NCBI GenBank assembly: GCA_031414775.1
Contig: JANOQI010000060.1
Coordinates: forward strand, 1-36,204
DNA length: 36,204 nt
Source of the DNA: Synechococcales cyanobacterium VAR_4_metabat_354
GTDB taxonomy: Bacteria > Cyanobacteriota > Cyanobacteriia > Cyanobacteriales > Chamaesiphonaceae
Direction: 5' to 3'
Below, piece after piece: positions 1,491 to 35,009 of this stretch (positions within the stretch are counted from its first letter, which is position 1; each line of letters opens with the position of its first letter). The notes under the pieces were generated by a model. That model did no database searches and had not been told where the DNA came from. It saw nothing but the letters and a program-made list of their open reading frames with translations. The position numbers and the translations under genes were made by a program.

Positions 1491-4361
1491 TTAATTGAGA
1501 TACCAACGGATTTTAAATAAACATTTCAATTCACTTTTTTGCTCTAATTGCGACTCGATTTGAGCGATTAACTCATCTCGCTGTCGATCGACTTCATCCT
1601 GGGCATCAAATAGCGATCGCCGCTGTTGATTTCGCTGCGTCTCCAATGCCTTCACCTGCTTTTGTCCCGCCAACTTCGACTGTAGATCTACCGCCGCAGT
1701 TGCCGCTCGTTTCGCCTCCTTAATCTGTCGATCCATCTCCTTAATTTCCCGCTCCAATACTACCTTGAGATCGTCAGCCCAACCATCTAATTTCTTCGCT
1801 TCTGCCTCAAAGAAATTCGCATTTCGCTCGGCTACTCGTTGCTGAATTCGATTGACATCAGATTGGGTTTTAGTCTCTAATCTGGGATCTTTAAGCTCGA
1901 TCGATGGATTAATTATTCTCCCAGGTAAAGACATCAACCGTTTTGCTATCTCTGGATCTAATTCTTCGCCATCCTCAGTTACCGCTGCAAACACCAAATA
2001 ATCCTCTACCTGCCCCAGAGCTTCGATCGTAAATAGCGACAGACTCAGGATGCCGCTCATCCCCCCAAACGGCTCTAAAACCGTTATTTTACCCGCATAG
2101 TTACCATAATCAAACTGAACCTCAGCAGGGGCTAAAACTCGATTCTGAGCGCGTTCGACTAGCATTTCTGCTAACGGATGACCCATTCGATAGGTATGCG
2201 CTGTATCCGATCTACGCGGCAATTCATACAATCCCAACGGCACCGTTACTGTGGGTAATCCATCCGGCAACCGATCCAGCCGAAACGAATTCTCACTAAC
2301 AAACTCCGCATCCTGCGCTAACTCATAGCGAGTCAAATCGATTAAAAGCTTCTCGAATCTATCTAATACCTTGTCCGATCTTTCTTTGCGAACCTTGAGT
2401 TTTTCACGTACCTCATCATCAAAGTTATCTAATAACTTTTGGCGCGTTTGCACCATTGTTTTATTAATCTCAAAACTCAATTCCTGCTGAAGCTTATCGA
2501 AAGCTGCATCGATCTCTTCTGGTTGTCGGCACCGCTGATAAATCTCGGCAATCCGCTTCTCAAAATCTACACCAGACTCGATCGATCCCAAGACCTCATC
2601 ACTACAACCAAACACCCCGTCAAATAACTTAAACTTCTGATCTAATAACTCAAAAACTCGCTTGTCAGCCGCATTTTTCTGATTTAAGAAATTGACTACC
2701 ACCACATCATGCTTCTGCCCATAACGGTGACATCTGCCAATCCGTTGCTCCACCCGCTGGGGATTCCAAGGCAGATCGTAATTAATAATCAACGAACAAA
2801 ACTGGAGATTGATCCCCTCAGATCCCGCCTCAGTCGCGATCATAATGCTCCCCTGCTCTCGGAAATAGTCCACCAAAGCAGAACGCATATCCGCTGTTTT
2901 GGAGCCAGTTAATTTATCAGTTCCTTGATGCTGATTGAGCCAATCGCGGTAAATTTGTTTCGATCGATCGTCCGTATTCGAGCCATTAAATAGTAATAAT
3001 CCCTCACTCCATTCACTATTCCCCAGTAGACTCAGTAGATACTCCTGTGTCCGCCGCGACTCAGTAAAAATAAGTGCTTTTCTAGCACCACCATATTCTT
3101 CTGTTCGCTTGAAAGCAACTTCCAATACCTTGAGCAAGGCTTCACCCTTCGCATTTTGTTGGATCGAAACAGCTAAGTTGATAAATTCATCTAGCTCTTT
3201 AATTTCACTCTCGATCGCATTACGTTCTAATCCAGATAACGTTTCATCCAGCTCATCCTCACCCCATTCATCGATCGTTTCGTCTAGTTCTTCATAATCT
3301 TCAGCTAACTCCTCAGATAGCCTGCGGGCTGGTTCCTGCTGGGTGAGTTTTGCTTTGAGTCGTGTGGATAGAGAAGTTAATGTTTTAGCGATCGCAAATG
3401 TCGAAGAAGCTAATAGTTTACGCATCACCAATGTCATCAATGCTTTTTGACTGGTTGGTAATGCCTGAAGATTATCCCGACGTAAGTAATCAGAAACTAG
3501 ATTGTAGAGTTTTTCCTCATCCCAACTGGGCGTAAATTCCTCACAAATGGCATGACGCTGAGTAAACGGTACATAAGCAGTTACCTGTCGGCGCAATGTC
3601 CGATGACAAATCGGCTTGAGCCGTTCCTTGAGATCAGCTATCACTGTTTCTCCGTCTACCTTAGCAAACTGGGTGCGAAAACTTTTGAGATCGCCAAAGA
3701 CTCGATCGTCAATAAAACTCACCAACCCAAATAACTCCAACAAAGAGTTCTGTAATGGTGTTGCTGTCAGCAAAAGTTTATGACGATTCTGAAGTATGCG
3801 TTTGAGCGTATTAGCAATAATATTGGAAGATTTATAAACATTTCTCAGACGATGCGCTTCATCAATTACCACTAAATCCCAAGCAACAGACTCTACATCA
3901 TTCGCTTTATTTCGAGCGAATTGATAAGAACAAATAATAATTGAATCCCCTAAATCAAAGGGATAATCGTTAATATCTCTAGCAATCTTTTTATAAGACT
4001 TCGACTCTAAAATCGTACAAGGTAGAAAAAACTTCTCACTTAATTCTTGTTGCCACTGTTTGCGTAAGTTAGAAGGTGCGATGACTAGAATTTTGCGTTT
4101 CCGTTCCGCCCATTTTTGGGAAATCACTAACCCAGCTTCAATTGTTTTCCCTAAACCAACCTCATCGGCTAACAGTGCCCCTTTCGATAGTGGGGAGCCA
4201 AAAGCAAATAGTGCCGCATCTAATTGATGCGGATTTAGATCGACCTTTGCCCCAGCGAAAGTACTCGCCAACTTTTCCAAACTATCGGCTGAGTAACGTC
4301 TAGTAAGTTCGTAGGCATAATATTTAGCGTGATAGTCAGTCAGAAAGGGAAGTACAGCCAT
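1491..4361 (-). CDS. SNF2/RapA-like helicase of the type usually linked to type III R-M or DISARM loci
   Basis: LLADEVGLGKT (Walker A), DEAH, LLLTATP, ATEAGSEGINLQ, YDLPWNPQRVEQRIGRCHRYGQ and a C-terminal coiled coil. Start taken as ATG 4361 (the track uses TTG 4382). Confidence 0.9.
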   Translation of the reverse strand: MAVLPFLTDYHAKYYAYELTRRYSADSLEKLASTFAGAKVDLNPHQLDAALFAFGSPLSKGALLADEVGLGKTIEAGLVISQKWAERKRKILVIAPSNLRKQWQQELSEKFFLPCTILESKSYKKIARDINDYPFDLGDSIIICSYQFARNKANDVESVAWDLVVIDEAHRLRNVYKSSNIIANTLKRILQNRHKLLLTATPLQNSLLELFGLVSFIDDRVFGDLKSFRTQFAKVDGETVIADLKERLKPICHRTLRRQVTAYVPFTQRHAICEEFTPSWDEEKLYNLVSDYLRRDNLQALPTSQKALMTLVMRKLLASSTFAIAKTLTSLSTRLKAKLTQQEPARRLSEELAEDYEELDETIDEWGEDELDETLSGLERNAIESEIKELDEFINLAVSIQQNAKGEALLKVLEVAFKRTEEYGGARKALIFTESRRTQEYLLSLLGNSEWSEGLLLFNGSNTDDRSKQIYRDWLNQHQGTDKLTGSKTADMRSALVDYFREQGSIMIATEAGSEGINLQFCSLIINYDLPWNPQRVEQRIGRCHRYGQKHDVVVVNFLNQKNAADKRVFELLDQKFKLFDGVFGCSDEVLGSIESGVDFEKRIAEIYQRCRQPEEIDAAFDKLQQELSFEINKTMVQTRQKLLDNFDDEVREKLKVRKERSDKVLDRFEKLLIDLTRYELAQDAEFVSENSFRLDRLPDGLPTVTVPLGLYELPRRSDTAHTYRMGHPLAEMLVERAQNRVLAPAEVQFDYGNYAGKITVLEPFGGMSGILSLSLFTIEALGQVEDYLVFAAVTEDGEELDPEIAKRLMSLPGRIINPSIELKDPRLETKTQSDVNRIQQRVAERNANFFEAEAKKLDGWADDLKVVLEREIKEMDRQIKEAKRAATAAVDLQSKLAGQKQVKALETQRNQQRRSLFDAQDEVDRQRDELIAQIESQLEQKSELKCLFKIRWYLN

Positions 4362-4625
4362 ACAATATGTCAACAAGCTCAATAATTGAGAATATTTTTA
4401 GCTAGAAACTCTATTGCCAATATAGATTTACTTAGCTAATGAGCCAAAATTCAATTTTGTCAGGTTTGTTTAATCAGAGTTCACATTATACCAATACCTT
4501 ACTACCGGATTAATGACATTGTCTCCAAAAAGTGGCTGGGAAAAACAATAATTGGGTGTGGTACGATGGCCGGTGGCCAAAATAGTCTAAATTAGGGTGG
4601 AACATTGCGATGATGGCAGACAAAC

Positions 4626-5615
4626 ATGCTAAGAGATTGGCTGCTCAATATATCTATCACCTTCGGGTTAGGGTTATGTCTAGGGCTAGTCTTTAACTCT
4701 GGGAATCCGCTACTCTCCGGTTTTCAAGCCGCCATCGCTGCTGCCATCGGCACCGCAATTGTTACCAGAGGTAAGAAAAGCCGCTTTCAGAAAAATTCCG
4801 CTGCTCTGCGATCGCAAATTTCTAGGCTCCAAAATAAATCCCACGCTCTTCAGCACAATATCCTCACCGCTACTGCTGAACAAACCCAGATAGCCACTGA
4901 GCTAGATTCTTATTATCAACGTCAGCAAGCTGCTAAGCAACATATCAGCGCCTTGGAAACTGCTCGCCAGCGGATGACCACCGAGTCACAGCAAGTGCAA
5001 GACCAATTGACATCATTGCAAGCAGAACGCACTAGCCTGAAAGACAACATTGCTAAAATCACCATCAATCGTCAGCAACTACTGGGTGACAAACGAGAAC
5101 CCACTTCCGGACTAAGTAATTCTAACCAACGGCTAGAGTCAGAAAAACAGGAATTAAGCACCATTATTACCCAGTTAGAATCCCAAAAGATGAAGAGCCT
5201 TTCCGAGTCGCGCCAGCTGGAAGCGGACGTGGCTCAACTTGCTACGCATAAGCAATCACTGGAATTAGAGGTAGAACGGCTCCAACAAAAAATCGAGGAT
5301 AATCAACGATTAATTACTACAGCGACTCAGGCAATAATTAGCCCCCACAATCCTGAACCAGCACAATCAACTGTCCCACCAATGGCTGAAGAAAATTGGC
5401 AAGATCGCTTCGATGATGGGATGGTTCGATCGATCTTCATCCAACTGCAAAAATATGGTTCTGTCACCGAAGCTGAACTGACCCAAATGCTGGCCGGAAA
5501 TCCCCGTAAAGCCCGCCAATTTGCCCTGAAGTTTGAGGAATATTTAAAACTAGTCCCGTTTAATGCCAGAGTTGAAATCGCCGCTAGCGGTAAACGTTAC
5601 GTGCGCGAATGGTAG
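4626..5615 (+). CDS. Membrane-anchored coiled-coil protein with a small C-terminal globular (wHTH-like) domain
   Basis: Two N-terminal hydrophobic segments, about 180 aa of heptad Q/E/L-rich coil, a Pro-rich linker (PHNPEPAQSTVPP), then a domain of about 72 aa ending SGKRYVREW. Confidence 0.7.
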   Translation: MLRDWLLNISITFGLGLCLGLVFNSGNPLLSGFQAAIAAAIGTAIVTRGKKSRFQKNSAALRSQISRLQNKSHALQHNILTATAEQTQIATELDSYYQRQQAAKQHISALETARQRMTTESQQVQDQLTSLQAERTSLKDNIAKITINRQQLLGDKREPTSGLSNSNQRLESEKQELSTIITQLESQKMKSLSESRQLEADVAQLATHKQSLELEVERLQQKIEDNQRLITTATQAIISPHNPEPAQSTVPPMAEENWQDRFDDGMVRSIFIQLQKYGSVTEAELTQMLAGNPRKARQFALKFEEYLKLVPFNARVEIAASGKRYVREW

Positions 5616-8455: not shown

Positions 8456-9721
8456 ATGCCTTCCCCGAAACATGTTGATTCAAATAAATTATTAGGGTTT
8501 TTTGACTATTTCAAACAATCTCTGAAAATGGCACCTATGCCAGTCATTGCTTTAATTATTTATATGAGCCTGCGTAGTACTTCCTTTTGGGTTAACGAGA
8601 CACTACCCCCTGGTGAGCTGTGGCATCCGGCATATTTAGGATGGTACGATTTCTTATTATTATTTTCTATTCTAGGGAGCATGATAAATAGATCTATAAA
8701 AATGGATGGAAAAGATCTATTGATTTTTTCGTTACTACTAATAATAATTCTATTAAGCTTTTGTAGTGGTCGAAGGATAGATATTAAATATGTAATAGAC
8801 TGTAGCGTTTTCTTACTGAGAGTATTCTTAAGCTTTTCTTTTGCAAAGGGACTGGTTCTTCGTCGAGGTGTCCGAGTAGTAGAAAGTATTCTAATGATTC
8901 TGTTCATCATTCTATCAATGAGTGCTCTATTTGTGTATCAATTACAATTTGGAGAAAATAACAGAATATTTGCAGCAGCGATGACTTCTCCCAGCTTTGC
9001 CCAAGTAGCTGTAATAGTTTTTCTAATAGCTGTAGTTAGAAAATATAATAAAATGACAATATTTTCTCTAATTTTTTTATTTCTTACATTTAGTAGAACA
9101 TCTGTTTTATTATTAGTTATTCTATTAGTTATTTATTCAAGAAGACTTCCATTGAAAACAACGCTGAAATATTTCACTATATTATTAGGGACTATTGCTA
9201 TTGGGGCTTTTATTATTATTAACTTTACAGGAGATGCCTTTACTTATGTAATAGCCGAGCGCACAGATATGGGAGGAATTGCTACTTTGAATTCAAGAGA
9301 TATTATATGGGAAACTGCTGCATCTATCATAAATAATGGAGATATTCCACTATTTGGTATTGGATTGAATGCCACTCCATCATTACTTCAGTATGTGAAT
9401 AGTTTAGATGTTATTACTGACGAAGTAGAAATTAAATCCATCTCACATTTTCATAGTATTTTAATAGAATACTATTTTGGATTAGGATTTTCATCTTTAT
9501 TTTTATGGTTATACTTCATTAGAAGAATTCTTCAAACCCTTTATCATCAATGCTATCCATCATTTTTTATTTTTGTATTCTTTATAGTATGTCAGTCAGT
9601 AGATTTTACTTTTTATAATCCGAAAGAGTTAGTTATTTGGTCGCTAATGCTAGGCATTGCTGAAGGTCAATGGATAAGTGAGAACGGAACGTTCTCAAGT
9701 AAAGAAAGAATTGCACAGTAG
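8456..9721 (+). CDS. Wzy-like polymerase / O-antigen ligase family protein
   Basis: Polytopic membrane protein with LTFSRTS, NSRDIIW, PLFGIG and HFHSILIE motifs. Very AT-rich (10/60 GC in line 9061). Confidence 0.8.
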   Translation: MPSPKHVDSNKLLGFFDYFKQSLKMAPMPVIALIIYMSLRSTSFWVNETLPPGELWHPAYLGWYDFLLLFSILGSMINRSIKMDGKDLLIFSLLLIIILLSFCSGRRIDIKYVIDCSVFLLRVFLSFSFAKGLVLRRGVRVVESILMILFIILSMSALFVYQLQFGENNRIFAAAMTSPSFAQVAVIVFLIAVVRKYNKMTIFSLIFLFLTFSRTSVLLLVILLVIYSRRLPLKTTLKYFTILLGTIAIGAFIIINFTGDAFTYVIAERTDMGGIATLNSRDIIWETAASIINNGDIPLFGIGLNATPSLLQYVNSLDVITDEVEIKSISHFHSILIEYYFGLGFSSLFLWLYFIRRILQTLYHQCYPSFFIFVFFIVCQSVDFTFYNPKELVIWSLMLGIAEGQWISENGTFSSKERIAQ

Positions 9722-19164: not shown

Positions 19165-21225
19165 ATGACTAACAACAATCCCTTACTGATTGGCCAAGGT
19201 TTACCACCATTCACTGAAATTCAGGTTGACCACGTTGTCCCTGCGATCGAACAACTCTTAACGACCGTCGATGCCCAGCTTACCGAGCTAGAAAAAAACA
19301 TCGTACCGACTTGGGCTGGATTGATAGAACCGATCGATCGCCTCAGTGAAAAGTTGAACTGGGCATGGGGAATTGTTGGTCACTTAATGGGAGTCCAAAA
19401 TAGCCCAGAACTACGCACTGCCTATGAAGCTAGCCAGCCAGAGGTAATCAAATTCTTTATGCGCTTAGGTCAGAGTCAAGCCATCTACCAAGGATTGAAA
19501 CAGATCGCAACCAACGCCGACTGGGCAAAAATGAGTACGGCTCAACAGCGTATCATTACTGCCGCCATCCGCGAAACTGAACTATCTGGGGTGGGCTTAG
19601 AGGGTGAAAAAGCCGACAGGTTTAATGAGATCCAACTAGAACTAGCCGAACTCACCACCAAGTTTTCTAATAATGTCTTGGATGCCACCAAAGCCTTTAA
19701 TTTAGATCTCACCCAACCCGAAGATGTTGCAGGCTTGCCACCCAGCCTCTTAGCCCAATCGGCTCAGGCCAGCCGAGCAGCGGGTCAAGATCAAGCTACT
19801 GCCGAAACTGGACCCTGGCGAATTACCCTAGACTATCCTAGCTATGTGCCCTTTATGCAACATAGCCAACAACGCCATCTGCGTGAGCAAGTTTACAAAG
19901 CTTTGGTCAGTAGAGCCGCTGGAGGTGAATATGATAACGCCGCTCATATTGAACGCATTCTGACTCTGCGGCGGGAAATGGCACAGCTATTGGGTTTTGA
20001 AAGTTATGCTGAAATGAGCCTCGCCAGCAAAATGGCTCCCAATGTCGCAGCCGTCGAAGATTTGTTGGAATCTCTGCGTCAGGCCAGTTTTGATGCCGCC
20101 CATCGAGAATTGGATGACCTGCGCGAATTTTCGCACACCACCGACTTACAGCCTTGGGATGTGGCCTACTGGTCAGAGCGGTTGCGGGAACAAAAGTATG
20201 ATTTTAACGCCGAAGAGCTGCGCCCTTATTTTCCCTTGGAGCAGGTACTGTCTGGTTTGTTTAACCTGGCCAACCAATTGTTTGGGATATCGATCGTTCC
20301 AGCTGATGGTCAAACTGCTGTTTGGCACAAAGATGTGCGCTATTTTCAAGTGAATAATGAACAAAATGAAGCGATCGCCTATTTCTTTCTAGATCCCTAC
20401 AGCCGCCCTGCTGAAAAGCGTGGTGGTGCCTGGATGAATGATTGTGTAGGCCGCGAGAAATTGGCTGACAAAGTGCAGCTGCCGGTAGCTTACTTGGTTT
20501 GTAACCAGAGTCCTCCAGTAGATGATCAACCCAGCCTGATGACTTTTGCTGAAGTCGAAACGCTGTTCCATGAGTTTGGACACGGCTTACAGCACATGCT
20601 CACCACCGTAGATTTCGCCTCGGCTGCCGGCATTAATAATGTGGAGTGGGATGCGGTAGAACTACCCAGTCAGTTTATGGAAAACTGGTGTTACCATCGC
20701 CCGACGCTATTGAGTATGGGCAAACATTATCAAACCGGGGAGCCATTGCCCGATCACTACTACCAAAAGCTAGTAGCTGCCAAGAACTTCATGAGTGGCA
20801 GTGGGATGTTGCGTCAGATCCACTTTAGCTGGGTAGATATCGAGTTGCATCATCGTTATCAGCCCAGTCATGGCCAATCAGCTAATGACGTGCGGCTGGC
20901 ACTAGCCAAGAAGACTACGGTATTAACTCCGATTCCAGAAGACCAGTTTCTCTGTTCCTTTGGGCACATTTTTGCGGGAGGTTATGCCGCTGGCTATTAT
21001 AGCTATAAATGGGCAGAAGTATTGAGTGCCGATGCTTTTGGTGCCTTTGAAGATGCTGGCTTAGATAATGTGGAAGCTGTCCAGCAGACGGGGCGACGCT
21101 TCCGGGATACAGTGCTAGCCTTAGGTGGTAGTCAGCCACCGTTGGAAGTCTTTAAGTCTTTCCGAGGTCGGGAACCAGAAGCGGCAGCGTTGTTACGTCA
21201 TAGTGGTTTATTGATCACTGTTTAG
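19165..21225 (+). CDS. prlC: Oligopeptidase A (M3A metallopeptidase)
   Basis: KRGGAWM, TLFHEFGHGLQH (HExxH), WDAVELPSQFME, GYAAGYYSYKWAEVL. Confidence 0.96.
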   Translation: MTNNNPLLIGQGLPPFTEIQVDHVVPAIEQLLTTVDAQLTELEKNIVPTWAGLIEPIDRLSEKLNWAWGIVGHLMGVQNSPELRTAYEASQPEVIKFFMRLGQSQAIYQGLKQIATNADWAKMSTAQQRIITAAIRETELSGVGLEGEKADRFNEIQLELAELTTKFSNNVLDATKAFNLDLTQPEDVAGLPPSLLAQSAQASRAAGQDQATAETGPWRITLDYPSYVPFMQHSQQRHLREQVYKALVSRAAGGEYDNAAHIERILTLRREMAQLLGFESYAEMSLASKMAPNVAAVEDLLESLRQASFDAAHRELDDLREFSHTTDLQPWDVAYWSERLREQKYDFNAEELRPYFPLEQVLSGLFNLANQLFGISIVPADGQTAVWHKDVRYFQVNNEQNEAIAYFFLDPYSRPAEKRGGAWMNDCVGREKLADKVQLPVAYLVCNQSPPVDDQPSLMTFAEVETLFHEFGHGLQHMLTTVDFASAAGINNVEWDAVELPSQFMENWCYHRPTLLSMGKHYQTGEPLPDHYYQKLVAAKNFMSGSGMLRQIHFSWVDIELHHRYQPSHGQSANDVRLALAKKTTVLTPIPEDQFLCSFGHIFAGGYAAGYYSYKWAEVLSADAFGAFEDAGLDNVEAVQQTGRRFRDTVLALGGSQPPLEVFKSFRGREPEAAALLRHSGLLITV

Positions 21226-21237
21226 AACCAAGGGAAA

Positions 21238-21258
21238 ACGGTGGGCAATGCTCACCGT
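21238..21258. repeat. REP-like hairpin of the GGTGGGCA-N-TGCCCACC type
   Basis: ACGGTGGGCA-A-TGCTCACCGT, a near-perfect inverted repeat (one G-U pair) 12 bp after the prlC stop. Confidence 0.6.
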
Positions 21259-21305
21259 AAAGTCTTGAAAGCCTTATCAATATTACATTCACTTTTGAAT
21301 CAGTA

Positions 21306-22523
21306 ATGATTAAAGTAAAATCCATCTCATTTAAAAACTATAAAGCATTTTTTGAAGAGCAAACAATGCAGCTGAAGCCAATTACTATTTTAATTGGTAA
21401 AAATAGCTCTGGCAAAAGTTGCATTGCCAAATTGTTCACCTTGATTGAAAACTCGCTTTCTGGCAATATAGAAGAACCATTGTTATTAAATAATTGCGGA
21501 GTCGAATTAGGTAATGACTTTGATAACCTATTTTTTGATAATAATCCAGGTGGGCTTCCTTTAACCTTCAAAATTATATTTGAGGATAACGTGGAAATGG
21601 AGATAAGTTTACTTAAGAAAGTAGAAGCATATGGATTAGATATTCTTCAATGGAGATATAAAGATAATAATAGGGAATTCAACCTTGAGCTTAATGATGA
21701 AGAGTATTTAGACACAATTACTGGGAAAACTTACAAGTGTAAATTCAATGGATTTACCCCTATTCAACTCATTGAAAATAACACTTCTGAGAACCTTTCT
21801 AACACTTTAAAAATAGGTCAAATTGATGTTGACTATATTGGACCATTTAGAATTTTACCTGAGAGATACTTCTATTTAACTGGGCAAACATATTTTCGGG
21901 ATACAGGTATCACAGGTGAAAATGCTTACACAATGCTCGGAATCAGTAAGCTAAAAAAAGATAGCAATTTACACAAAGATGTAGGAAAATGGTATAGAGA
22001 GCATTTTGATGGATGGGAGCTGAAAGTAGATGACAGAAGTGTAAAGCCTCTTTTTCAAATTTTACTTTCTAAAAATGAAACTGAGATAAATATTGTAGAT
22101 GTTGGGCAGGGAATGAATCAGGCTTTGCCTTTAGTCGTTCGAGCCAGTGTTACAGATAGACCTGATTCCATGGTAATTTTAGAACAACCAGAGCTACATT
22201 TGCATCCTGCTGCGCACGGTGATTTGGCAGAATTATTCGCTAAATCCACGAAAATCAATAACCAGGTTTTCATCATTGAGACTCACTCTGAAAACATACT
22301 CTTACGCTTCCGCAAGCTTATTATTGAGAATGATTTTGGATTTACACAAGATGATGTAATAGTTTATTGGTTAGAAGATGCTGAATCTAAAGGTCAACGA
22401 CTAATGGAAATTACAATTGATGAAAATGGGGTTTTGAGTGATTGGCAAGATGGAGTTTTTGATGAGGGATTGAAAGAAGTATTGGAGATACAGAAAGCTC
22501 TTATCAGAAAAGAAAAAAGATAA
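21306..22523 (+). CDS. ABC-type ATPase (AAA_21/AAA_15) with DUF3696-like C-terminus
   Basis: GKNSSGKS Walker A, YIGPFR, DVGQGMNQALP signature, ILEQPELHLHP Walker B, IETHSE H-loop, C-terminal IDENGVLSDWQDGVFDE. Confidence 0.9.
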   Translation: MIKVKSISFKNYKAFFEEQTMQLKPITILIGKNSSGKSCIAKLFTLIENSLSGNIEEPLLLNNCGVELGNDFDNLFFDNNPGGLPLTFKIIFEDNVEMEISLLKKVEAYGLDILQWRYKDNNREFNLELNDEEYLDTITGKTYKCKFNGFTPIQLIENNTSENLSNTLKIGQIDVDYIGPFRILPERYFYLTGQTYFRDTGITGENAYTMLGISKLKKDSNLHKDVGKWYREHFDGWELKVDDRSVKPLFQILLSKNETEINIVDVGQGMNQALPLVVRASVTDRPDSMVILEQPELHLHPAAHGDLAELFAKSTKINNQVFIIETHSENILLRFRKLIIENDFGFTQDDVIVYWLEDAESKGQRLMEITIDENGVLSDWQDGVFDEGLKEVLEIQKALIRKEKR

Positions 22524-23570
22524 ATGATTATATCTTTTAACCAATGTGTTTTTCAGAGTCAAGATATGGAAACACAAAAGACATTAGCTAAAATAATTAT
22601 GGCTTTGATGGAAAATCATCATCACCTTATAGATTTTAAAAGTATAAGGTCTGTCTTCTACAATGAAAATAATCAGTATGTTTTTGATTTAAATGAAATT
22701 TCTAATTTACATATGTCTGTTCTACAGAGAAGGATTTTAAAAGAATTTTTAAGTAAGGAAAGCCATAGAAATATTACTAGTTTACATAATCAACATCTGG
22801 TACGTATCATTGTTGGAATGGACGAAAAGAATAATGAAATTCATCCTTATAATGCACATAAAATTATTAAAGAGCGATCAAAAATTCTTGTAGAAAATGG
22901 AATTAATGATTGGAAATTTATCAAGGGCATTTGTCAGAAATACAGCAGTGCTAAAATAAAAAGGCGTTCGATATATAAAATGATAGACGAAGCTATAAAA
23001 AATGAATTCTTGGAGGCTGAACATTGCGGTGGTATTGGAGACATTAAAAAAATAACCCAAAAGTGGATAAATAGTTCCCGCTACAAAAGTATTTTCAAAT
23101 ATAAGCTAATGGCTGTTTTTGATAGTGATAGAGAAAAATCTGATGAAGTAACTAAACATAAAGACAAAATCAAATATTTCAAGCAATTAGAGAAAGAGAT
23201 AGAAAATATTATAAATTATGAATATGAGTTCAATGATCTGATAGTATGGCATGTTCTTTATAAAAGAAAAATTGAAAATTACATACCTTTGAGTATTTTA
23301 CTTAACCACCTTTCATCAATAACTCAAGTTCAGAAAAGAGACTTAGAGTCTAAAACTAATGAAGAATTAGATTTTTTAGAATATGGTGAAAATAATATAG
23401 GAATAGGAAAAAGTAAAATAAAAGATCAATTTCCTAGTATATTTTTACATAATTTTTCTTATCGTGATTTCGAAAAAAGATGTGAGCACCACAAAACTTT
23501 TCTTGAACTGGAAAGCGAAAATATATCGGAAATAGAACAAATTTTACTTAAAATCGTAAAAATATTATGA
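22524..23570 (+). CDS. Hypothetical protein with a TOPRIM-like (OLD/AriB-type) nuclease domain
   Basis: ILVENGINDWKFI (catalytic E...D), HCGGIGDI, AVFDSD (DxD), KRKIENYIP. Starts immediately after the ATPase stop codon. Confidence 0.65.
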   Translation: MIISFNQCVFQSQDMETQKTLAKIIMALMENHHHLIDFKSIRSVFYNENNQYVFDLNEISNLHMSVLQRRILKEFLSKESHRNITSLHNQHLVRIIVGMDEKNNEIHPYNAHKIIKERSKILVENGINDWKFIKGICQKYSSAKIKRRSIYKMIDEAIKNEFLEAEHCGGIGDIKKITQKWINSSRYKSIFKYKLMAVFDSDREKSDEVTKHKDKIKYFKQLEKEIENIINYEYEFNDLIVWHVLYKRKIENYIPLSILLNHLSSITQVQKRDLESKTNEELDFLEYGENNIGIGKSKIKDQFPSIFLHNFSYRDFEKRCEHHKTFLELESENISEIEQILLKIVKIL

Positions 23571-25153
23571 ATGAGAAAATTAATGTTAAACCTGATACTA
23601 TATATCTTGAAGATTTGTTAGATGATGTAGCTGATGGCAAGTATAAAATACCTGTATTTCAGCGAGATTTTGTTTGGAAATCTTCTCAAATGCTTGAGCT
23701 ATTTGACAGCATTTTAAAAGGATATCCAATAGGCAGTTTATTGTTCTGGAATACCAAAGAAAAATACAATATCAGACAAGAAATAGGCTTATACAACATT
23801 GAAGAAAATGACAATGAAGACACAAGATATGTATTAGACGGGTTTCAGCGTATATCCACTTTATTTGGAGTATTAACACATCCTAACAAATATCAACAAA
23901 GTGATATCGAAAGCCATAAAGAATTTTTAATTTACTTCGATAGTAAAGAAAACAGTTTTACTTATATCAGAAATAAAAAAGAAAAAAGTATATTTTCAAT
24001 TCCTCTTTACGTAGTTTATGATAATCGTGAATTGTTTAATATTATTAGATCTTTGGATGCTGAAGAATTCTCAAGTCTTGAAAAAGAAAAATATATTGAT
24101 AATATAAGAAATTTACATGATGTTTTACATAAATATAAAATACCATATGTAGAAATAAAGGGAGGAAAAATAAAAAATGCTGTTGAAATTTTTTCAAGAG
24201 TCAATTCGACTGGCACAGAAATTTCCGAGGACTTTATGCTTTCAGCATTAAGCTACAATGTAGATACAAATTTTTTGCTTAGTGAATCAATTACTGAGTT
24301 TCTAAATAGTTTGAATATTTACAATTTTGAAAATTTAAAAAGAGACACTATTTTAAATTGTATTTCTAATGCAAATGGTACAATTTATTTTGATGTAAAA
24401 ATAGAAGACTTGTTGGATAAAGGAATAACACCAGATTTAGAGTCTGTTGTAAAAAATACGTACATACACATTAAAAAAGCCGTAAAATTTTTATATCACC
24501 ACTTATCAGTAATTGATTTTCGTTTACTACCTTATCCAGCTCAGTTAATTTTCATTTCTGAGTATTTTAGGCTGAATCCATCTCCTACACTCAATCAAAT
24601 TGATTCTTTGGAAAATTGGTTTTGGGTAACAACTTATTCCAATTATTTTACAATATATTCTTTAAGCCAGCATAGAGCTTCTTACATAGAATTCTGTAAT
24701 TTTGCGAGGGGAGAACATCCTGATGGAATTTACAAAGTGAATAGTGATATGCAATTCAGCACCGCGAAGTATCCAGATAAGTTGAATTTTAAAGGTGTCA
24801 GACCAAAGGCTCTACAACTATTTTATCTAAGATCAATAGTTGAGAATAGTGTTATTCAGGATAAGGAAGGGATAAAAGAAATATTCATTTCAACTTCTTC
24901 GAAAAAAGATAGAACCCCAGCTAATATTATTCTCAGGTTGTCATCCGAATTCGAAAAAGACCAGAGTCAAAAACAACCTGAAGTGTTTATTAAAAAGTCT
25001 GGCGCTGACGTCTTAAATCAACATTTTATAAAGCCAGAAATGGTTGAATTATATGAAAGCGATATAGAGAGCTTTATTTGTGAAAGAGAAATATATTTAA
25101 AATCAAAAGAAAAACAGTTTGTGGAGAAGTTCGGAATTAGATATACAGATTAA
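23567..25153 (+). CDS. DUF262 (ParB-like/GmrS) domain protein
   Basis: IPVFQRDFVW, LFDSILKGYPIGSLLFW, VLDGFQRISTL, IFSRVNSTG. ATGA overlap with the upstream gene. Confidence 0.92.
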   Translation: MNEKINVKPDTIYLEDLLDDVADGKYKIPVFQRDFVWKSSQMLELFDSILKGYPIGSLLFWNTKEKYNIRQEIGLYNIEENDNEDTRYVLDGFQRISTLFGVLTHPNKYQQSDIESHKEFLIYFDSKENSFTYIRNKKEKSIFSIPLYVVYDNRELFNIIRSLDAEEFSSLEKEKYIDNIRNLHDVLHKYKIPYVEIKGGKIKNAVEIFSRVNSTGTEISEDFMLSALSYNVDTNFLLSESITEFLNSLNIYNFENLKRDTILNCISNANGTIYFDVKIEDLLDKGITPDLESVVKNTYIHIKKAVKFLYHHLSVIDFRLLPYPAQLIFISEYFRLNPSPTLNQIDSLENWFWVTTYSNYFTIYSLSQHRASYIEFCNFARGEHPDGIYKVNSDMQFSTAKYPDKLNFKGVRPKALQLFYLRSIVENSVIQDKEGIKEIFISTSSKKDRTPANIILRLSSEFEKDQSQKQPEVFIKKSGADVLNQHFIKPEMVELYESDIESFICEREIYLKSKEKQFVEKFGIRYTD

Positions 25154-25231: not shown

Positions 25232-25295
25232 CTTAGTCTATTATATCTAATGCTTGATTTGTGATTATAATCCAACATACTTTGGAGGCGAAATA

Positions 25296-25652
25296 ATGCT
25301 GACTAAAAACCAAGCGCAAACATTTGCAGAAGAATGGGTGCAAGCCTTTAATTCCCATGATCTCGATCGTATTCTCTCCCACTATCATGAAGATGTGGTG
25401 TTAGTTTCTCCGATCGCCGCCCAAATTTTAAACGATCCCAATGGCACAGTTCGAGGTAAAAAAACACTCCGCGCCTATTTCCAAAAGGGGCTAGCCGTCT
25501 ATCCTGATTTGAAGTTTGAATTGCTAGATGTAATGTGGGGGATCTCCAGTGTGGTTCTTTACTACATCAACCAAAAAGGTACCAGGTCTGGGGAATTGAT
25601 GGAAATCGATGCCGCTGGCCAAGTCACCAAAGTAATCGCTAACTACAATTAA
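25296..25652 (+). CDS. SnoaL-like / NTF2-family protein
   Basis: FAEEWVQAFNSHDLDRILSHY...GKKTLRAYF...YPDLKFEL. ATG 25296 follows GGAGG. Confidence 0.88.
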   Translation: MLTKNQAQTFAEEWVQAFNSHDLDRILSHYHEDVVLVSPIAAQILNDPNGTVRGKKTLRAYFQKGLAVYPDLKFELLDVMWGISSVVLYYINQKGTRSGELMEIDAAGQVTKVIANYN

Positions 25653-25661
25653 TCAAAACTA

Positions 25662-26564
25662 ATGACTATACCTACCCAGTCTCGGCAAGAATTTCTCGGT
25701 TTTGCCTATGGGTTTCTTGGCATCCTCATTTTCAGCATAACTTTACCTGCAACCAAAATGGCAATCGCAGGCGGCTTCGATCCGGTATTTGTCGGTCTGG
25801 GTCGCGCAGTAGTGGCCGCGATGCTGTCATTGCTTTTGTTAATTGTTACTCGTCAAACCATCCCACCCTGGCGATTTCTACCGAAATTTGCCATTGTAGT
25901 AATTGGTGTAGTTATTGGGTTTCCGTTATTGTCAGCGCTGGCCATGCGCGATGCCCCAGCGTCTTATGGAGCAGTCATTACCGGGTTATTACCTTTAGCA
26001 ACTGCGGTGTTTGGCGCTTGGCGCGCTGGCGAACGACCATCTTTACCCTTTTGGATTTGGGCGGTAGTTGGTAGCGGTTTGGTGGTAACTTTTGCGTTGA
26101 TTTCTGGTACTGGTGGACTGCGGTTTGCGGATTTAGCCTTGCTGGGAGCCGTCGCTGCTGCGGGGTTGGGCTATGCCGAAGGCGCAGTGTTAGCGAAGAC
26201 TTTTGGTGCTTGGCAAGTAATTTGCTGGTCGTTAGTACTGTCAGTGCCAATACTGCTGCCAATTACGCTGCAACATCTACCAAATTCTGGTGTTGTAATT
26301 ACTAGTAGCGCTCTGTGGGGATTTCTGTATATCAGCGTTTTCAGTATGTTTCTGGGGTTTTTCGCTTGGTATCAGGGGTTGTTGTTGGGTGGTATTGCGC
26401 GGGTAGGTCAACTACAACTTTTTCAGCCTTTTCTGACCATTTTGGCATCGGCACTGCTATTGGGCGAAAAGCTATCGATCGATACCCTCGGTTTTGCAGT
26501 GGGGGTGATTTGCTGTGTGGCTTTGGGCAAACGAACCCAAATCAAAAAATCATCCCCTTTGTAG
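25662..26564 (+). CDS. DMT/EamA family transporter
   Basis: About 10 TM helices; FSITLPATK, GLLPLATA, FFAWYQGL...GIARVGQLQLFQP, LLGE. Confidence 0.92.
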   Translation: MTIPTQSRQEFLGFAYGFLGILIFSITLPATKMAIAGGFDPVFVGLGRAVVAAMLSLLLLIVTRQTIPPWRFLPKFAIVVIGVVIGFPLLSALAMRDAPASYGAVITGLLPLATAVFGAWRAGERPSLPFWIWAVVGSGLVVTFALISGTGGLRFADLALLGAVAAAGLGYAEGAVLAKTFGAWQVICWSLVLSVPILLPITLQHLPNSGVVITSSALWGFLYISVFSMFLGFFAWYQGLLLGGIARVGQLQLFQPFLTILASALLLGEKLSIDTLGFAVGVICCVALGKRTQIKKSSPL

Positions 26565-29465: not shown

Positions 29466-32400
29466 GTGCAAAATCAGTCTTTGTTAAAAAGCATCGATAC
29501 ATTACTGGTGTCCCACGGTCTTTTTGGGCTTAATGACGTGCAGATGACCGTCTTAGAAAGTACTTTAGCCGGGGAATCTTACCCAGAGATCGCTGATCGA
29601 TCGACCTATACACTGGAATATATCAGGGAAGTCGGCGCGAGACTTTGGCAGCTATTGGCTCAAGCATTAGGTGAACCAGTTAGTAAAAAAAATATTCGAT
29701 CGGTTTTACAGCGGTATCAACAGTCTTTAGCGGTAGTGGAATTAGAGCGCCAGTACTCTTGGGGTGAATCGATCGATGTCTCGATTTTCTATGGCCGTAC
29801 GCAAGAGCTGAAAACACTAGATAAATGGATTACCAAAGATCGTTGCCGCCTCATTGAAATTCTGGCGATGGGTGGGATGGGCAAGACGGCGCTGGCGGTG
29901 AAATTGGCGCAGCAGCTGCCCACCGAATTTGATTTTGTGGTGTGGCGATCACTACGTAATGCTCCGCCGTTGTCGGATATTTTGGCGGACACGATTGCTC
30001 TGCTTTCACAGCAACAGGAAATTGCCTTAACTGTAGACCCTGCTATCCATCTGGCTCGGCTGATCCACTATTTGCAACAACATCGCTGTCTGTTGATCTT
30101 CGATAATGTAGAGTCGATTTTGGAGGGTGGCAGTTCCCGCCAATATTTAGCGGGTTATGAAGGTTATGGAGAGCTATTTCGACGAGTAGCCGAATGCTCT
30201 CATCAAAGCTGTGTCTTGTTGACTAGTCGCGAACAAATCGCTGAAATTGGCAATTTTGCCGGAGATAATTTACCGGTAAGGACATTGCCGCTGGGTGGAC
30301 TATCGATCGAGGCGGGGATGGCGATCTTAGATGACAAAGGTTTGCCACTGACGATCGATAAAGGGCAAGAATTAGTTGATTTATATGCAGGGAATCCACT
30401 GGCGCTGAAGATTATTTCCACTTCGATTTTGGAAGTGTTTGACGGCCAAATCCAAGAATTTTTTGATCAGGGTACTGCTGTTTTCAATGGGATCAGAATG
30501 TTGCTGGAGCGTCAATTTGAGCGACTGTCGTCGATCGAACAGCAGGTGATGTTTTGGCTGGCAATTGAGCGGGAATGGGTGTCGGTGGGAGATCTCCAAG
30601 CAGATATATTACCAGCGATTTCAATATCACAGTTATTGGAAGCGTTGGAATATTTGCAAGGTCGATCGCTGATTGAGGTGAAGGCTGGTCGATTTACGCA
30701 GCAGCCGGTAGTAATGGAGTATGCGATCGATAAATTATTAAGGGCGATGCGCACGGAGATTTGCGATCAAACACCCCAGCTATGGCTGACTTATGCGTTG
30801 ATGAAGGCGCAGTCTAAGGACTATGTGCGGGATAGTCAAATTCGGGTAATTGTTCAACCTTTGTTGGCGATGTTGGCTTCAGATTTAGGTGGAGAGGGAT
30901 CGACTATCCAGGTTTTGAAAGGGTTGTTGTCGGGTTTGGCGGCAGATGCGTTGGCGGCGGCTAGTTATGGGGCGGGTAATTGTTTGAATTTGCTTGGTCA
31001 GTTGCAGGCTGATTTAACGGGGTTGGATTTGGCGGGATTAAGTATTCGGCAGGCTGATTTGCGGGAGGTGTCGCTGGCTGGGGTGAATTTGACGCGGGCT
31101 AATTTGGAGACTTCGTTGTTTGCGGAATCGATCGGCGATGTTTTTAAAGTTGCCATTAGCCCGGACGATCGGCTCATTGCTAAAGGTGGAAGTGACGGTA
31201 AAATTACCATTTGGGAATTAGGAACTGGTCGAAATATTTATAGTATCAAAGCTCATGATAGTTATGTTGCCAGCTTAGTTTTTACGGCGAACAGCAAAAA
31301 ACTTATCAGTTCGAGTTTTGATGGTTCGATCAAAACTTGGGATCTAGAAAGTGGATTCTGTTTACAAACGTTACAGCTACAAGCGCCTGTTTACCGGATC
31401 GCTCTAAATCAGAACAGCACCATTTTGGCTAGTGGTAGTAATTGTGGTGACATTCTATTGTGGAATCTAGCGACTGGAGAAATTTCAAAAAGGCTTGTTG
31501 GCCATAAATTAACTGTTGTAGATATGTCCTTTCAACCACAAGGACAGTTACTTGCTAGTAGTAGTTTTGATACCTCTATTAAAATCTGGAATCTGGATAC
31601 AGAAGATTGCGTGAATACCCTCACTGGACATACTGAACTCGTTTCATCAGTAAATTTTAATTCTTTAGGTACCCAAGTAGTTAGTAGTGGCTTGGACAAA
31701 TCTATTAAAATCTGGGATGTGGAGTCTGGTCAATGTTTGCAAACTATTCAAAAGCACAAAAAAACAGTTATTGACGTTCTATTTAGTCCCAATAGTCAGC
31801 AAATAATTAGTGGTAGCCAAGATTTGACCGTGCGCATTTGGGATGAGGTAACTTTTCATAACTGGGAATGCACTCATGTTTTACTAGGGCATGAGAATAC
31901 GATTTGGTCGATTGCTCTCAATACTACAGGTGAAACTTTGATTAGTAGCGATCAAGGCGGTATTTTAAAAGTTTGGGATGTGCAATTAGGGAAATGTATC
32001 AAAACTTTTGGTAGTATATCTAAAGTTTTTAGATCCTTAGCTTTTCACCCACATAAAAATCTGCTGGCCAGCAGTACTGAAAATCGCCAAATTCAGCTCT
32101 GGGATCTCTCTACTTATCAGTGTTTGAGTACTATGGTGGCTCATGAAATTGCTGTTTGGCAAGTTGCATTTTCACCTAATGGTGATGCGCTGGTTAGTTG
32201 CGGTATGGATGGGGTAGTCAAGATTTGGGATATCACTGAAAATTCTACTTTTCAAAAATACCATCAACTCACTCAGCAAATTTTACGACCGATTTTTACG
32301 ATTGCTTTTCATCCCAATGGCAAAATTTTAGCCACAGGCACTGTTGATAGTATTTGTCTTTGGGATTATCCTTCTGGTCGGTTGTTGAAAAAGTTAGATC

Positions 32401-33026
32401 GATCAGGATTAGGACATGTAGCTTTCCATCCAACCGGCCAACAATTGGCAGTAGCTGACCATGATCCTAATATCAATATTTGGAGTTTAGGAACAGGAGA
32501 TAGCGATCTCGAAGTATCTTACTGGCTGAAATGCTCACTACAGGGGCATAGAAGTGAAAATTGGGCGGTGGCTTTTCATCCCCATGGCTGCTTGTTAGCC
32601 AGTGGTGGAGAGGATCGCGACATTCGTATTTGGGATATTGACATGGGTGAGTGTCGCTATGTTTTGAGCGAACATATTGCACCTATAACCTGTCTAGCAT
32701 TTAGTCCTGATGGAAATTATTTAGCCAGTAGTAGTAAAGATCGCACGATTCGAATTTGGGAAGTATCTACTGGAAAATGTATTAGAACACTAACAACTCA
32801 CACGGATTTAGTTAATTTTGTGGTTTTTCATCCTGATGCAAAGCGACAATTACTAGCCAGTTGTAGTCATGATGAAACAATTCGATTATGGGACATGGAT
32901 TTCTGGTTGTGTACCAAGACATTACGACAACGAAGAATCTATGAAGAAATGAATATTACCGGAGCCACCGGACTCTCCCTGCCTCAAATAGCGACGCTCA
33001 AAAACTTTGGTGCCATTACAAACTAG
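29466..33026 (+). CDS. STAND NB-ARC ATPase with N-terminal HTH, pentapeptide linker and WD40 repeats
   Basis: FYGRTQEL, AMGGMGKT, WRSLRNAPP, LLIFDNVE, LLTSRE, GNPLALK, ADLTGLDLAGLSIRQADL, roughly 14 WD repeats, YEEMNITGATGL C-terminus. Confidence 0.93.
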   Translation: MQNQSLLKSIDTLLVSHGLFGLNDVQMTVLESTLAGESYPEIADRSTYTLEYIREVGARLWQLLAQALGEPVSKKNIRSVLQRYQQSLAVVELERQYSWGESIDVSIFYGRTQELKTLDKWITKDRCRLIEILAMGGMGKTALAVKLAQQLPTEFDFVVWRSLRNAPPLSDILADTIALLSQQQEIALTVDPAIHLARLIHYLQQHRCLLIFDNVESILEGGSSRQYLAGYEGYGELFRRVAECSHQSCVLLTSREQIAEIGNFAGDNLPVRTLPLGGLSIEAGMAILDDKGLPLTIDKGQELVDLYAGNPLALKIISTSILEVFDGQIQEFFDQGTAVFNGIRMLLERQFERLSSIEQQVMFWLAIEREWVSVGDLQADILPAISISQLLEALEYLQGRSLIEVKAGRFTQQPVVMEYAIDKLLRAMRTEICDQTPQLWLTYALMKAQSKDYVRDSQIRVIVQPLLAMLASDLGGEGSTIQVLKGLLSGLAADALAAASYGAGNCLNLLGQLQADLTGLDLAGLSIRQADLREVSLAGVNLTRANLETSLFAESIGDVFKVAISPDDRLIAKGGSDGKITIWELGTGRNIYSIKAHDSYVASLVFTANSKKLISSSFDGSIKTWDLESGFCLQTLQLQAPVYRIALNQNSTILASGSNCGDILLWNLATGEISKRLVGHKLTVVDMSFQPQGQLLASSSFDTSIKIWNLDTEDCVNTLTGHTELVSSVNFNSLGTQVVSSGLDKSIKIWDVESGQCLQTIQKHKKTVIDVLFSPNSQQIISGSQDLTVRIWDEVTFHNWECTHVLLGHENTIWSIALNTTGETLISSDQGGILKVWDVQLGKCIKTFGSISKVFRSLAFHPHKNLLASSTENRQIQLWDLSTYQCLSTMVAHEIAVWQVAFSPNGDALVSCGMDGVVKIWDITENSTFQKYHQLTQQILRPIFTIAFHPNGKILATGTVDSICLWDYPSGRLLKKLDRSGLGHVAFHPTGQQLAVADHDPNINIWSLGTGDSDLEVSYWLKCSLQGHRSENWAVAFHPHGCLLASGGEDRDIRIWDIDMGECRYVLSEHIAPITCLAFSPDGNYLASSSKDRTIRIWEVSTGKCIRTLTTHTDLVNFVVFHPDAKRQLLASCSHDETIRLWDMDFWLCTKTLRQRRIYEEMNITGATGLSLPQIATLKNFGAITN

Positions 33027-34124: not shown

Positions 34125-34320
34125 ATGCCTCACAAAGAATTGCCACTGGCAGAAAGACAACTATTAATTAGACAGCTAATGCGCAAACTAGGTGAAACTA
34201 ATCATGAAACGATCGATTCGATCGATCAGCTCACTCTCGAACAGTTGGAATCGCTAGGTGATGCTCTGTTGGACTTCAATGCGATCCGAAGATCTGCATT
34301 TATGGCTAAATGACAGTTAA
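34125..34320 (+). pseudogene. Stand-alone DUF4351 domain with a +1 frameshift
   Basis: LLIRQLMRKLG...QLTLEQLESLGDALLDF. Removing one C at 34286/7 restores the typical ending AIEDLHLWLNDS* (TAA 34318-34320). Confidence 0.75.
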
Positions 34321-35009
34321 GAATTTTCCGGAGGCAGCTCGCCAAAACGTTGTTGATACATTGCTAGCTGTGCCTCTAATTCATTCGATCGTTGAATTTC
34401 TCTAGCTAAGGCTAGGTCTAGTTCAGCTGGGGGCAATAATTTTTCTCCGTTATCTAACCGATGGAAAGCGATGGTTTTGTCTTCTACGGTGATCTGAAGT
34501 TGGAGGGGCTGACTGTGACCATCAGTGATTGGAAAATAAGTCTGTTCTCCGGCTCCTTGCAACCTGAAACCGCGCAGTTTTTCGGGAATCCATTCGCCAC
34601 GCGGGTCAAACTGCCAATACTCGGTCACACCAATGCTTTCGTACAGATTTTTTTTATCAATATCATCTTGTAAGCGGGTACCGGGTGAAGTCACTTCAAA
34701 TACTACAGCTGGCACCTGGCCTTCTTCCCAGGTTTTATAATTATCGCGGCCGCCTGGCTGGACGTTAAAGATCACCATGACATCTGGAGCGACTCGTAAG
34801 CGGGGAAACCCTTGAGCGTAGTACAAATATTGATCGGCTAGGACGGTGGCTGGTTGGCCTCTGAGGTAATTCATGAGCATGGCCACGGTGGTCATGATTA
34901 CGTATAAGTGGTCAAAGGTTTCAGCCAAGGGTGCTCCGTCTGAGCTGGGGTATAAGATTTCAGGGCGCGGGGCCGGGTTGGAAATGGCGCTGATTAATCC
35001 TACTGTCAT
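34317..35009 (-). CDS. Uma2 family endonuclease-fold protein
   Basis: YPSSDGAPLAETFDH, VAPDVMVI, VFEVTSPGT, GVTEYWQFDP. Confidence 0.93.
   Translation of the reverse strand: MTVGLISAISNPAPRPEILYPSSDGAPLAETFDHLYVIMTTVAMLMNYLRGQPATVLADQYLYYAQGFPRLRVAPDVMVIFNVQPGGRDNYKTWEEGQVPAVVFEVTSPGTRLQDDIDKKNLYESIGVTEYWQFDPRGEWIPEKLRGFRLQGAGEQTYFPITDGHSQPLQLQITVEDKTIAFHRLDNGEKLLPPAELDLALAREIQRSNELEAQLAMYQQRFGELPPENS

Follow-up and report, generated by a model that had tools for sequence, protein, structure and literature searches.

What do an ATPase, a TOPRIM protein and a long DUF262 protein do together? The question is raised by three tightly coupled, very AT-rich genes in contig JANOQI010000060.1 of the cyanobacterium Synechococcales cyanobacterium VAR_4_metabat_354, of which a stretch of 36,204 nucleotides (the window) was analyzed. 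The genes, here called A, B and C, are open reading frames (ORFs) that encode proteins of the following lengths in amino acids (aa):

21306-22523, + strand: gene A, 405 aa
22524-23570, + strand: gene B, 348 aa
23567-25153, + strand: gene C, 528 aa

The TAA of A abuts the ATG of B at 22523/22524, and B and C share an ATGA overlap at 23567-23570. In gene order, the best PADLOC matches were PDC-M55A (E value [E] of 6e-74, residues 4-403), PDC-M55B (E 4.5e-15) and PDC-M55C (E 3e-98), with A and C matched over their full length. The genes are also adjacent on one strand in the A-B-C order of PDC-M55. The cassette thus belongs to PDC-M55; set against tested systems, it is a Menshen-like variant. We consider it highly probable that the cassette is a defense system of some kind.

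Three domains were assigned to C:

23567-24241, + strand: DUF262/ParB-like nucleoside triphosphatase (NTPase) domain, Pfam GmrSD_N at residues 14-225, with intact QRxxxW, DGxQR and FxxxN motifs
24242-24793, + strand: helical middle domain, GmrSD-M/ParBDB-like by model alignment, predicted to bind DNA
24794-25153, + strand: degenerate DUF1524/HNH-like domain, in which the catalytic HHxxP and the second catalytic Asn are missing

The DNA-binding role of the middle domain is taken from PMC12065111 (section 12). The structure model of C (predicted local distance difference test score [pLDDT], 86.7) aligned over residues 7-523 with residues 1-582 of BrxU (PDB 7P9K; Z 16.1; 468 residues aligned) at a root-mean-square deviation (rmsd) of 14.9, a value that suggests shifted domains, and Foldseek matched C to BrxU at an E of 1.4e-13. 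Residues 218-528 aligned with the C-terminal part of SspE (7DRI; Z 7.5), and DndI aligned too. All three NTPase motifs were present in 39/39 diverse homologues and in 114 to 115 of the 115 close ones, and the HNH histidines and second asparagine were present in none of either set (0/39 and 0/115). The closest relatives of C outside the PDC-M55 family are stand-alone proteins of 520 to 560 aa with an intact HHxxP..N..N motif, and the poorly conserved C-terminal domain of C matched these HNH-bearing sisters with an hhalign probability of 88.6% (E 2.6e-6), compared to 0.3% for a reversed control. In BrxU, the DHIYP motif is required for cutting and dispensable for hydrolysis of nucleoside triphosphates (NTPs) (PMC8565348). 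Because the GmrSD-like fold is kept, the HNH motif is gone and the BrxU motif is needed for cutting, C is best read, from its model, as a disarmed GmrSD: a full-length GmrSD/BrxU-like protein that kept its NTPase motifs and lost its HNH catalytic motif. In trees, the C proteins formed one well-supported group (support, 95 to 98) in which cyanobacterial members nest among those of Bacteroidota. The same genome also encodes a second DUF262 protein (567 aa; L002:121-1824, contig C2) that has an intact DHIMP HNH motif and is likely an active GmrSD-type enzyme.

Gene B was divided into two domains:

22524-22865, + strand: N-terminal domain, residues 1-114, in the position that an inactive-PIN docking domain takes up in Menshen NsnC
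22866-23570, + strand: TOPRIM nuclease domain of the OLD/Gabija/AriB type (PDC-M55B), by structural alignment and invariant E/DxD

Sequence comparison gave few matches for B: no Pfam or NCBIfam family scored above the cutoff, PDB sequence searches returned nothing useful and Foldseek with the B model returned nothing at an E of ≤0.001. The model itself was of high confidence (pLDDT, 96.8), and residues 115-348 aligned with the C-terminal region of OLD (6NK8; Z 12.7; rmsd 3.4; 185 residues aligned). The TOPRIM region also aligned with GajA (Z 8.7), AriB (Z 7.8; range, 7.8 to 8.6) and retron effectors. Residues E124, D200 and D202 were kept in 141/141 B homologues, 130 of which matched PDC-M55B, although the window's B matches that profile only at residues 119-268. 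None of the 141 matched the NsnC, DUF4276 or RloB profiles, and none matched AriB or DUF4435. We conclude from the models that the C-terminal part of B is a TOPRIM nuclease domain with predicted catalytic activity. Residues 1-114 may be an inactive PIN domain; hhalign against two NsnC N-terminal groups was negative, the best Atlas score was 0.84 (<0.9) and fold searches barely covered the domain. Inactive-PIN families have little sequence in common (PMC12065111).

The product of A contains Pfam AAA_15 and AAA_21 and, at residues 348-394, DUF3696. Besides PDC-M55A, it matched NsnB (8e-52) and AriA (2e-21), and eight residues were invariant across 48 homologues (G31, G36, K37, R182, G267, G269, E293 and H327). 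On the NsnB profile, A scored 175 bits, compared to 348 to 435 bits for canonical NsnB, and the A proteins formed their own supported group (support, 99) on a branch separate from NsnB. By motif pattern, which is as reported for NsnB, we conclude that A is an NsnB-like, OLD-type ABC ATPase with a C-terminal DUF3696 tail.

The most likely role of the three proteins together is anti-phage defense by abortive infection, in a scheme built by analogy to which, as a full chain, we give an even chance: the disarmed GmrSD would sense infection and signal to the NsnB-type ABC ATPase, and the OLD-type TOPRIM nuclease would be unleashed. By analogy, C would bind modified or otherwise foreign DNA through its DUF262 and middle domains and would, like BrxU, change state upon NTP hydrolysis; DUF262 domains are reported as sensors in SspE and GmrSD (PMC12065111, section 12). 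A dimer of A would grip B by its DUF3696 tails, as ATPase dimers are predicted to hold their effectors by C-terminal tails in Menshen NsnB-NsnC (PMC12065111) and WonAB (PMC12137116), and the signal from C, passing via the ATPase, would release or activate B. Freed B would then cut host nucleic acid, most likely tRNA, which is cleaved by AriB (PMC11464382) and OLD (10.64898/2026.07.10.737580), and the infected cell would be arrested.

The genes next to relatives of C differed with the state of the HNH motif. Three genome searches with a C profile yielded 68 loci (best-scoring matches only; genome G575 was unscored in one search), and neighbors within flanks of about 1.5 kb were tallied for 63 full-length proteins. 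A TOPRIM, HipA or RelA-like neighbor was found for 0 of the 23 HNH-intact proteins, and the 40 HNH-less proteins neighbored a TOPRIM gene (13), a HipA kinase gene (24), a RelA-like gene (2) or a contig end (1). When wider flanks were inspected at 20 hand-picked loci, a toxin-like gene was coupled to 11/11 HNH-less and 0/9 intact proteins. Pfam confirmed HipA in 4/4 cases tested; the RelA-like call is based on Atlas features and the structure of one protein, and Pfam gave no match. HNH-less DUF262 genes overlap a HipA kinase gene at L189:3430-6307, L190:3754-6641, L191:3584-7247 and L192:1634-4504, as well as at L156-L176, and such operons were seen in cyanobacteria, Myxococcota and a gammaproteobacterial sample. 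PADLOC at 1e-8 gave no match for two HipA kinases tested from these operons. A RelA/SpoT-like gene overlaps a downstream HNH-less or DUF262-only gene at L181:3755-6378, L182:3486-5905 and L196:4124-5606. We regard the DUF262-HipA operon as a candidate unlisted defense or toxin-antitoxin system and the RelA-like-DUF262 operon as a candidate unlisted system. No description of DUF262 paired with HipA or RelA was found in the literature searched; earlier neighborhood surveys may list such pairs.

The HNH-less set could indicate either one loss of the motif or several. Repeated independent loss was set aside as a conclusion: the free tree needs three changes, but a single motif loss followed by partner swaps is not rejected (p 0.46). 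The trees were quick searches on chosen subsets (66, 35, 44 and 47 rows), with near-duplicates and L052 left out. Neither HipA kinases nor RelA-like enzymes are known to be DNases. That HNH-less sisters of C are paired with such non-DNases favors signaling to a growth-arrest toxin over outsourced restriction, in which C would recognize modified phage DNA, ATPase-steered B would cut that DNA and the cell would survive. Outsourced restriction draws on the nearest folds of B, which are the OLD and GajA nuclease domains, on the description of TOPRIM/OLD enzymes as DNA breakers (10.1101/2025.07.10.664194) and on the existence of two-gene GmrSD systems with HNH on one subunit only (PMC12373910 and PMC12137116). 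We consider it unlikely, as neither HipA nor RelA-like partners supply a DNase substitute, and AriB and OLD target tRNA in vivo (PMC11464382; 10.64898/2026.07.10.737580). Signaling to a toxin extends to a broader proposal, which we hold tentatively and at somewhat below even confidence: a GmrSD-type lineage may have shed its nuclease and become a plug-in infection sensor for three unrelated toxins, namely, ATPase-TOPRIM, HipA and RelA/SpoT-like. No full-length GmrSD with a dead HNH domain coupled to toxins was found in the literature searched, which earlier neighborhood surveys may add to, and none is described in the excerpts of PMC4619093, PMC10853773, PMC12839542, PMC12704722 and 10.1101/2025.07.10.664194.

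Linkage of the three genes was conserved. Scanning species genomes turned up 61 loci, or 60 once L077, an unrelated OLD-like gene, was dropped. A DUF262 gene lay downstream at 56 of the 57 loci with room downstream, and an ATPase gene lay upstream at 55/55 loci with room upstream, some of the ATPases being broken. Among the 56 DUF262-bearing loci, 4 are cut by contig ends, 3 have short DUF262-only forms and 1 is split by a transposon. The overlap or abutment of B and C is maintained across seven phyla, which from record names we take to be Cyanobacteria, Bacteroidota, Pseudomonadota, Myxococcota, Desulfobacterota, Acidobacteriota and Spirochaetota. An intact close copy was present in 7 of 301 cyanobacterial genomes, the window's own included, and B was upstream of all 7 top-tier C matches. 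The same gene order occurs on a Leclercia IncFII (conjugative) plasmid, where it adjoins a tyrosine recombinase; a plasmid search with the window's B and a phage search with the plasmid B each gave no match. Decaying copies were also seen, one with C split by a transposon (L052:5752-9556) and one a remnant with fragments of the ATPase and C (L103). When the 94 nearest flanking ORFs were scanned, 14 matched PADLOC at 1e-25 and 80 had no match, and at no fewer than 10 loci the nearest large neighbor was a clear restriction or defense gene, a count for which there was no control set.

Several observations weigh against abortive infection led by C. The 63-protein tally is not independent, as 21 of its 24 HipA cases are near-identical loci from one Myxococcota sample and, of its 13 TOPRIM cases, 3 are either the query itself or members of its alignment. 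The ATPase-TOPRIM pair occurs without C at L078:3130-5426 and on a Bacillus plasmid (L198:4199-6660), and a short variant (L037, L058 and L064) has ATPase and TOPRIM genes followed by a DUF262-only gene of 232 to 258 aa; C is therefore not universal, nor is its dead HNH domain. No other defense genes were detected by Pfam in the flanks within the window. PARIS relies on its ATPase for sensing (PMC11464382), and TOPRIM domains of B's type can cut DNA too (10.1101/2025.07.10.664194). Finally, the support comes from sequence, structure models and gene neighborhood.

The pairs that lack C could indicate that the cassette is two independent modules, with A and B a self-sufficient PARIS-like pair and C acting alone by nucleotide depletion, as a ParB-type nuclease or as an antitoxin or regulator. 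ParB/Srx domains can themselves be NTPases and nucleases (PMC4619093 and PMC10853773). The retained junction of B and C in seven phyla, the presence of B upstream of every top-tier C match and the single supported groups formed by C and A proteins alike all argue for joint function, and we consider two modules quite unlikely, more so than outsourced restriction. The Bacillus plasmid pair adjoins AbiG genes. Another alternative, on which we place slightly less weight again, is that C is a bait for phage GmrSD inhibitors (PMC12373910), such that binding of an inhibitor rather than DNA trips the toxin, as with Ocr and PARIS. A decoy would explain why the whole GmrSD shape is retained, useless HNH-like domain included, and PARIS does sense an anti-restriction protein (PMC11464382). 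A pure bait would not require the strictly kept NTPase motifs, however, and the C-terminal domain is poorly conserved and absent from three loci. Least probable is a selfish addiction or stress-response module with no anti-phage role, for which most loci, the window's included, sit among ordinary genes, one copy is carried by a plasmid and the ATPase-TOPRIM candidate HEC-01 showed no defense in testing (10.1101/2024.01.29.577857), and against which the nearest tested relatives of every component are anti-phage proteins and the PDC sets, 145 candidates, were picked because they lie inside BREX, DISARM or type I restriction-modification loci (Payne et al., 10.1101/2024.01.29.577857).

The cassette lies between host genes:

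19165-21225, + strand: left flank, prlC, oligopeptidase A (Pfam Peptidase_M3), conserved in relatives
21238-21258, strand not assigned: short imperfect palindrome in the interval between prlC and A, close to the insertion's left edge
25254-26564, + strand: right flank, SnoaL-like and EamA genes (Pfam), directly 3′ of prlC in congeners

The first-pass annotation, made from the sequence alone, had described three tightly coupled genes between ordinary genes, a sharp drop in guanine-plus-cytosine (GC) content (12/60 in one line, 32/60 in another) and horizontal acquisition, and each description was borne out. GC content was 0.298 in the cassette, compared to 0.432 in the remaining window and 0.456 in the genome, and the cassette was the lowest-GC stretch of 3,848 bp in the 3.56-Mb assembly (0.297; runner-up, 0.325). 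Relatives' contigs diverge at about 21281-21285. In congener G007, the SnoaL gene lies about 107 bases beyond prlC, and in congener G001, the EamA gene lies about 119 bases beyond it, with no cassette between, which indicates that the cassette is an insertion. Cassette DNA was absent from 30 related genomes beyond matches of 27 to 32 bases. The lowest GC content and the empty site in two congeners support the conclusion that the cassette was horizontally acquired and is of foreign origin. The absence of CGATCG, which the annotation had also cited, is real (0 sites, compared to 69 in the window) and carries no independent weight. At the genome rate, 9.1 sites would be expected, and 14 of 3,355 windows of cassette size genome-wide lack the site, but the base composition of the locus itself predicts just 0.22 sites, and the absence was therefore rejected as evidence separate from low GC content.

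Contigs from public DNA runs of two studies cover the cassette and bridge both the prlC-cassette and the cassette-SnoaL junctions (X4 records 3 and 5, from a study that is possibly the source of the assembly, and X6 record 23, spanning 21176-24981, from the second study), which makes an assembly chimera less likely. In two runs of that second study, X5 and X8, the cassette is >99% identical and prlC pieces are 5 to 9% different, a hint of recent transfer between related strains; both runs have a 6-base in-frame insertion at 24846, in the degenerate C-terminal domain of C. The palindrome had 10 genome-wide strand-matches at ≤2 mismatches (each palindrome counts twice), and a scan of the locus for promoters and terminators gave chance-level results only. 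Elsewhere in the window are a divergent pair at 1491-5615 made up of a gene for a 963-aa SNF2-type helicase and a coiled-coil gene, an O-antigen ligase (Wzy_C) gene (8456-9721) inside a polysaccharide cluster that has a second GC dip (0.28 at 9001-9500), a gene for a 1,186-aa WD40 protein (29466-33026) and a gene for a Uma2 putative endonuclease (34317-35009).

If the modular-sensor proposal is true, the cassette belongs to a family of guard systems that bridge restriction and abortive infection, a restriction enzyme came to trigger a suicide response, and two unlisted candidate systems are added. PDC-M55 has so far been catalogued as three profiles alone, and the present analysis adds a concrete mechanism; what is new is the reading of the long form of C as a GmrSD with a dead HNH domain and the alternative toxin partners of its kin. 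How the DUF262 sensor signals to the ATPase is stated to be unresolved for Menshen (PMC12065111), and a recognizably disarmed BrxU, together with the simpler two-gene HipA and RelA-like versions, should make that step easier to study. The plasmid-borne enterobacterial copy, which encodes WP_230431586.1, WP_230431587.1 and WP_172693805.1, suits testing in Escherichia coli.

How does the cassette compare with known systems? The domain calls of the first-pass annotation held (Pfam supported the ABC ATPase, DUF3696 and GmrSD_N/DUF262, and structure supported TOPRIM), and the survey of homologues it had called for revealed the three-gene linkage described above. It had further proposed an undescribed subtype related to Menshen or PARIS. 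The undescribed status gave way to PDC-M55, already a catalogued candidate set, with which the cassette has all three profiles and the gene order in common, the match of B being partial (119-268). No description of PDC-M55 or of phage protection by it was found in the literature searched, to which published supplements may add, and the main text of 10.1101/2024.01.29.577857 does not name it. A TOPRIM-type effector is likewise no novelty, as Menshen effectors of this type (DUF4276 and RloB) are already known (PMC12065111, section 18). The annotation was right about the 528-aa length of C and missed its reason, as the extra length is due to the degenerate GmrSD HNH domain. Relatedness of the components to Menshen and PARIS stands; membership in either fails on profiles and on gene order or number.

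With Menshen, the cassette shares a protein with DUF262 and middle domains, a two-domain effector and an ABC ATPase that, like NsnB, has DUF3696, a GxG signature, R for Q and a non-DE Walker B. It is not canonical Menshen and gave no full match to the Menshen profiles, as the order and the NsnA and NsnC profiles all fail. The order is ATPase-effector-DUF262 here, whereas it is DUF262-ATPase-effector in Menshen (NsnA-NsnB-NsnC in control loci). C matched the NsnA profile at 3e-12, compared to 1e-120 or better for true NsnA (4/4 controls), and its 528 aa include a C-terminal HNH-derived domain, whereas NsnA is about 360 to 420 aa with extra domains at the N terminus only (PMC12065111). Li et al. 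gathered just loci in which NsnA is followed by NsnB (PMC12065111, section 16), and the PDC-M55 order thus fell outside their collection. The trees do not set the cassette's origin apart from that of Menshen: the approximately unbiased test does not reject a clade of C with NsnA (p 0.70), and the tree constrained to that clade scored 8 log units higher, with NsnA on a very long branch. It is possible that PDC-M55 is an intermediate between GmrSD and Menshen. Three other loci (L136-L138) encode DUF3696 ATPases whose scores fall between those of PDC-M55A and NsnB; the genes that follow them are Ntox17- or HEC-03A/PIN-like, with an RNA ligase gene in one case.

PARIS was rejected, as the cassette has three genes rather than two, the AriA profile is matched at just 2e-21 and there is no AriB or DUF4435 match. 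Like PARIS AriAB, OLD, Gabija GajA and WonAB, the cassette has an ABC ATPase of the OLD type whose partner is a nuclease (TOPRIM or other); unlike them, it adds a third, DUF262 gene, and B adds a 114-residue N-terminal domain. Nuclease-less DUF262 partners are known from two-gene GmrSD systems (PMC12373910 and PMC12137116) and from ptuXYZ/Menshen. GmrSD and BrxU have the same three-part architecture throughout as C, with intact NTPase motifs (PMC8565348; PDB 7P9K), and C differs from them in lacking DHIYP/HHxxP and the second Asn and in its coupling to an ATPase-TOPRIM pair, whereas they stand alone.

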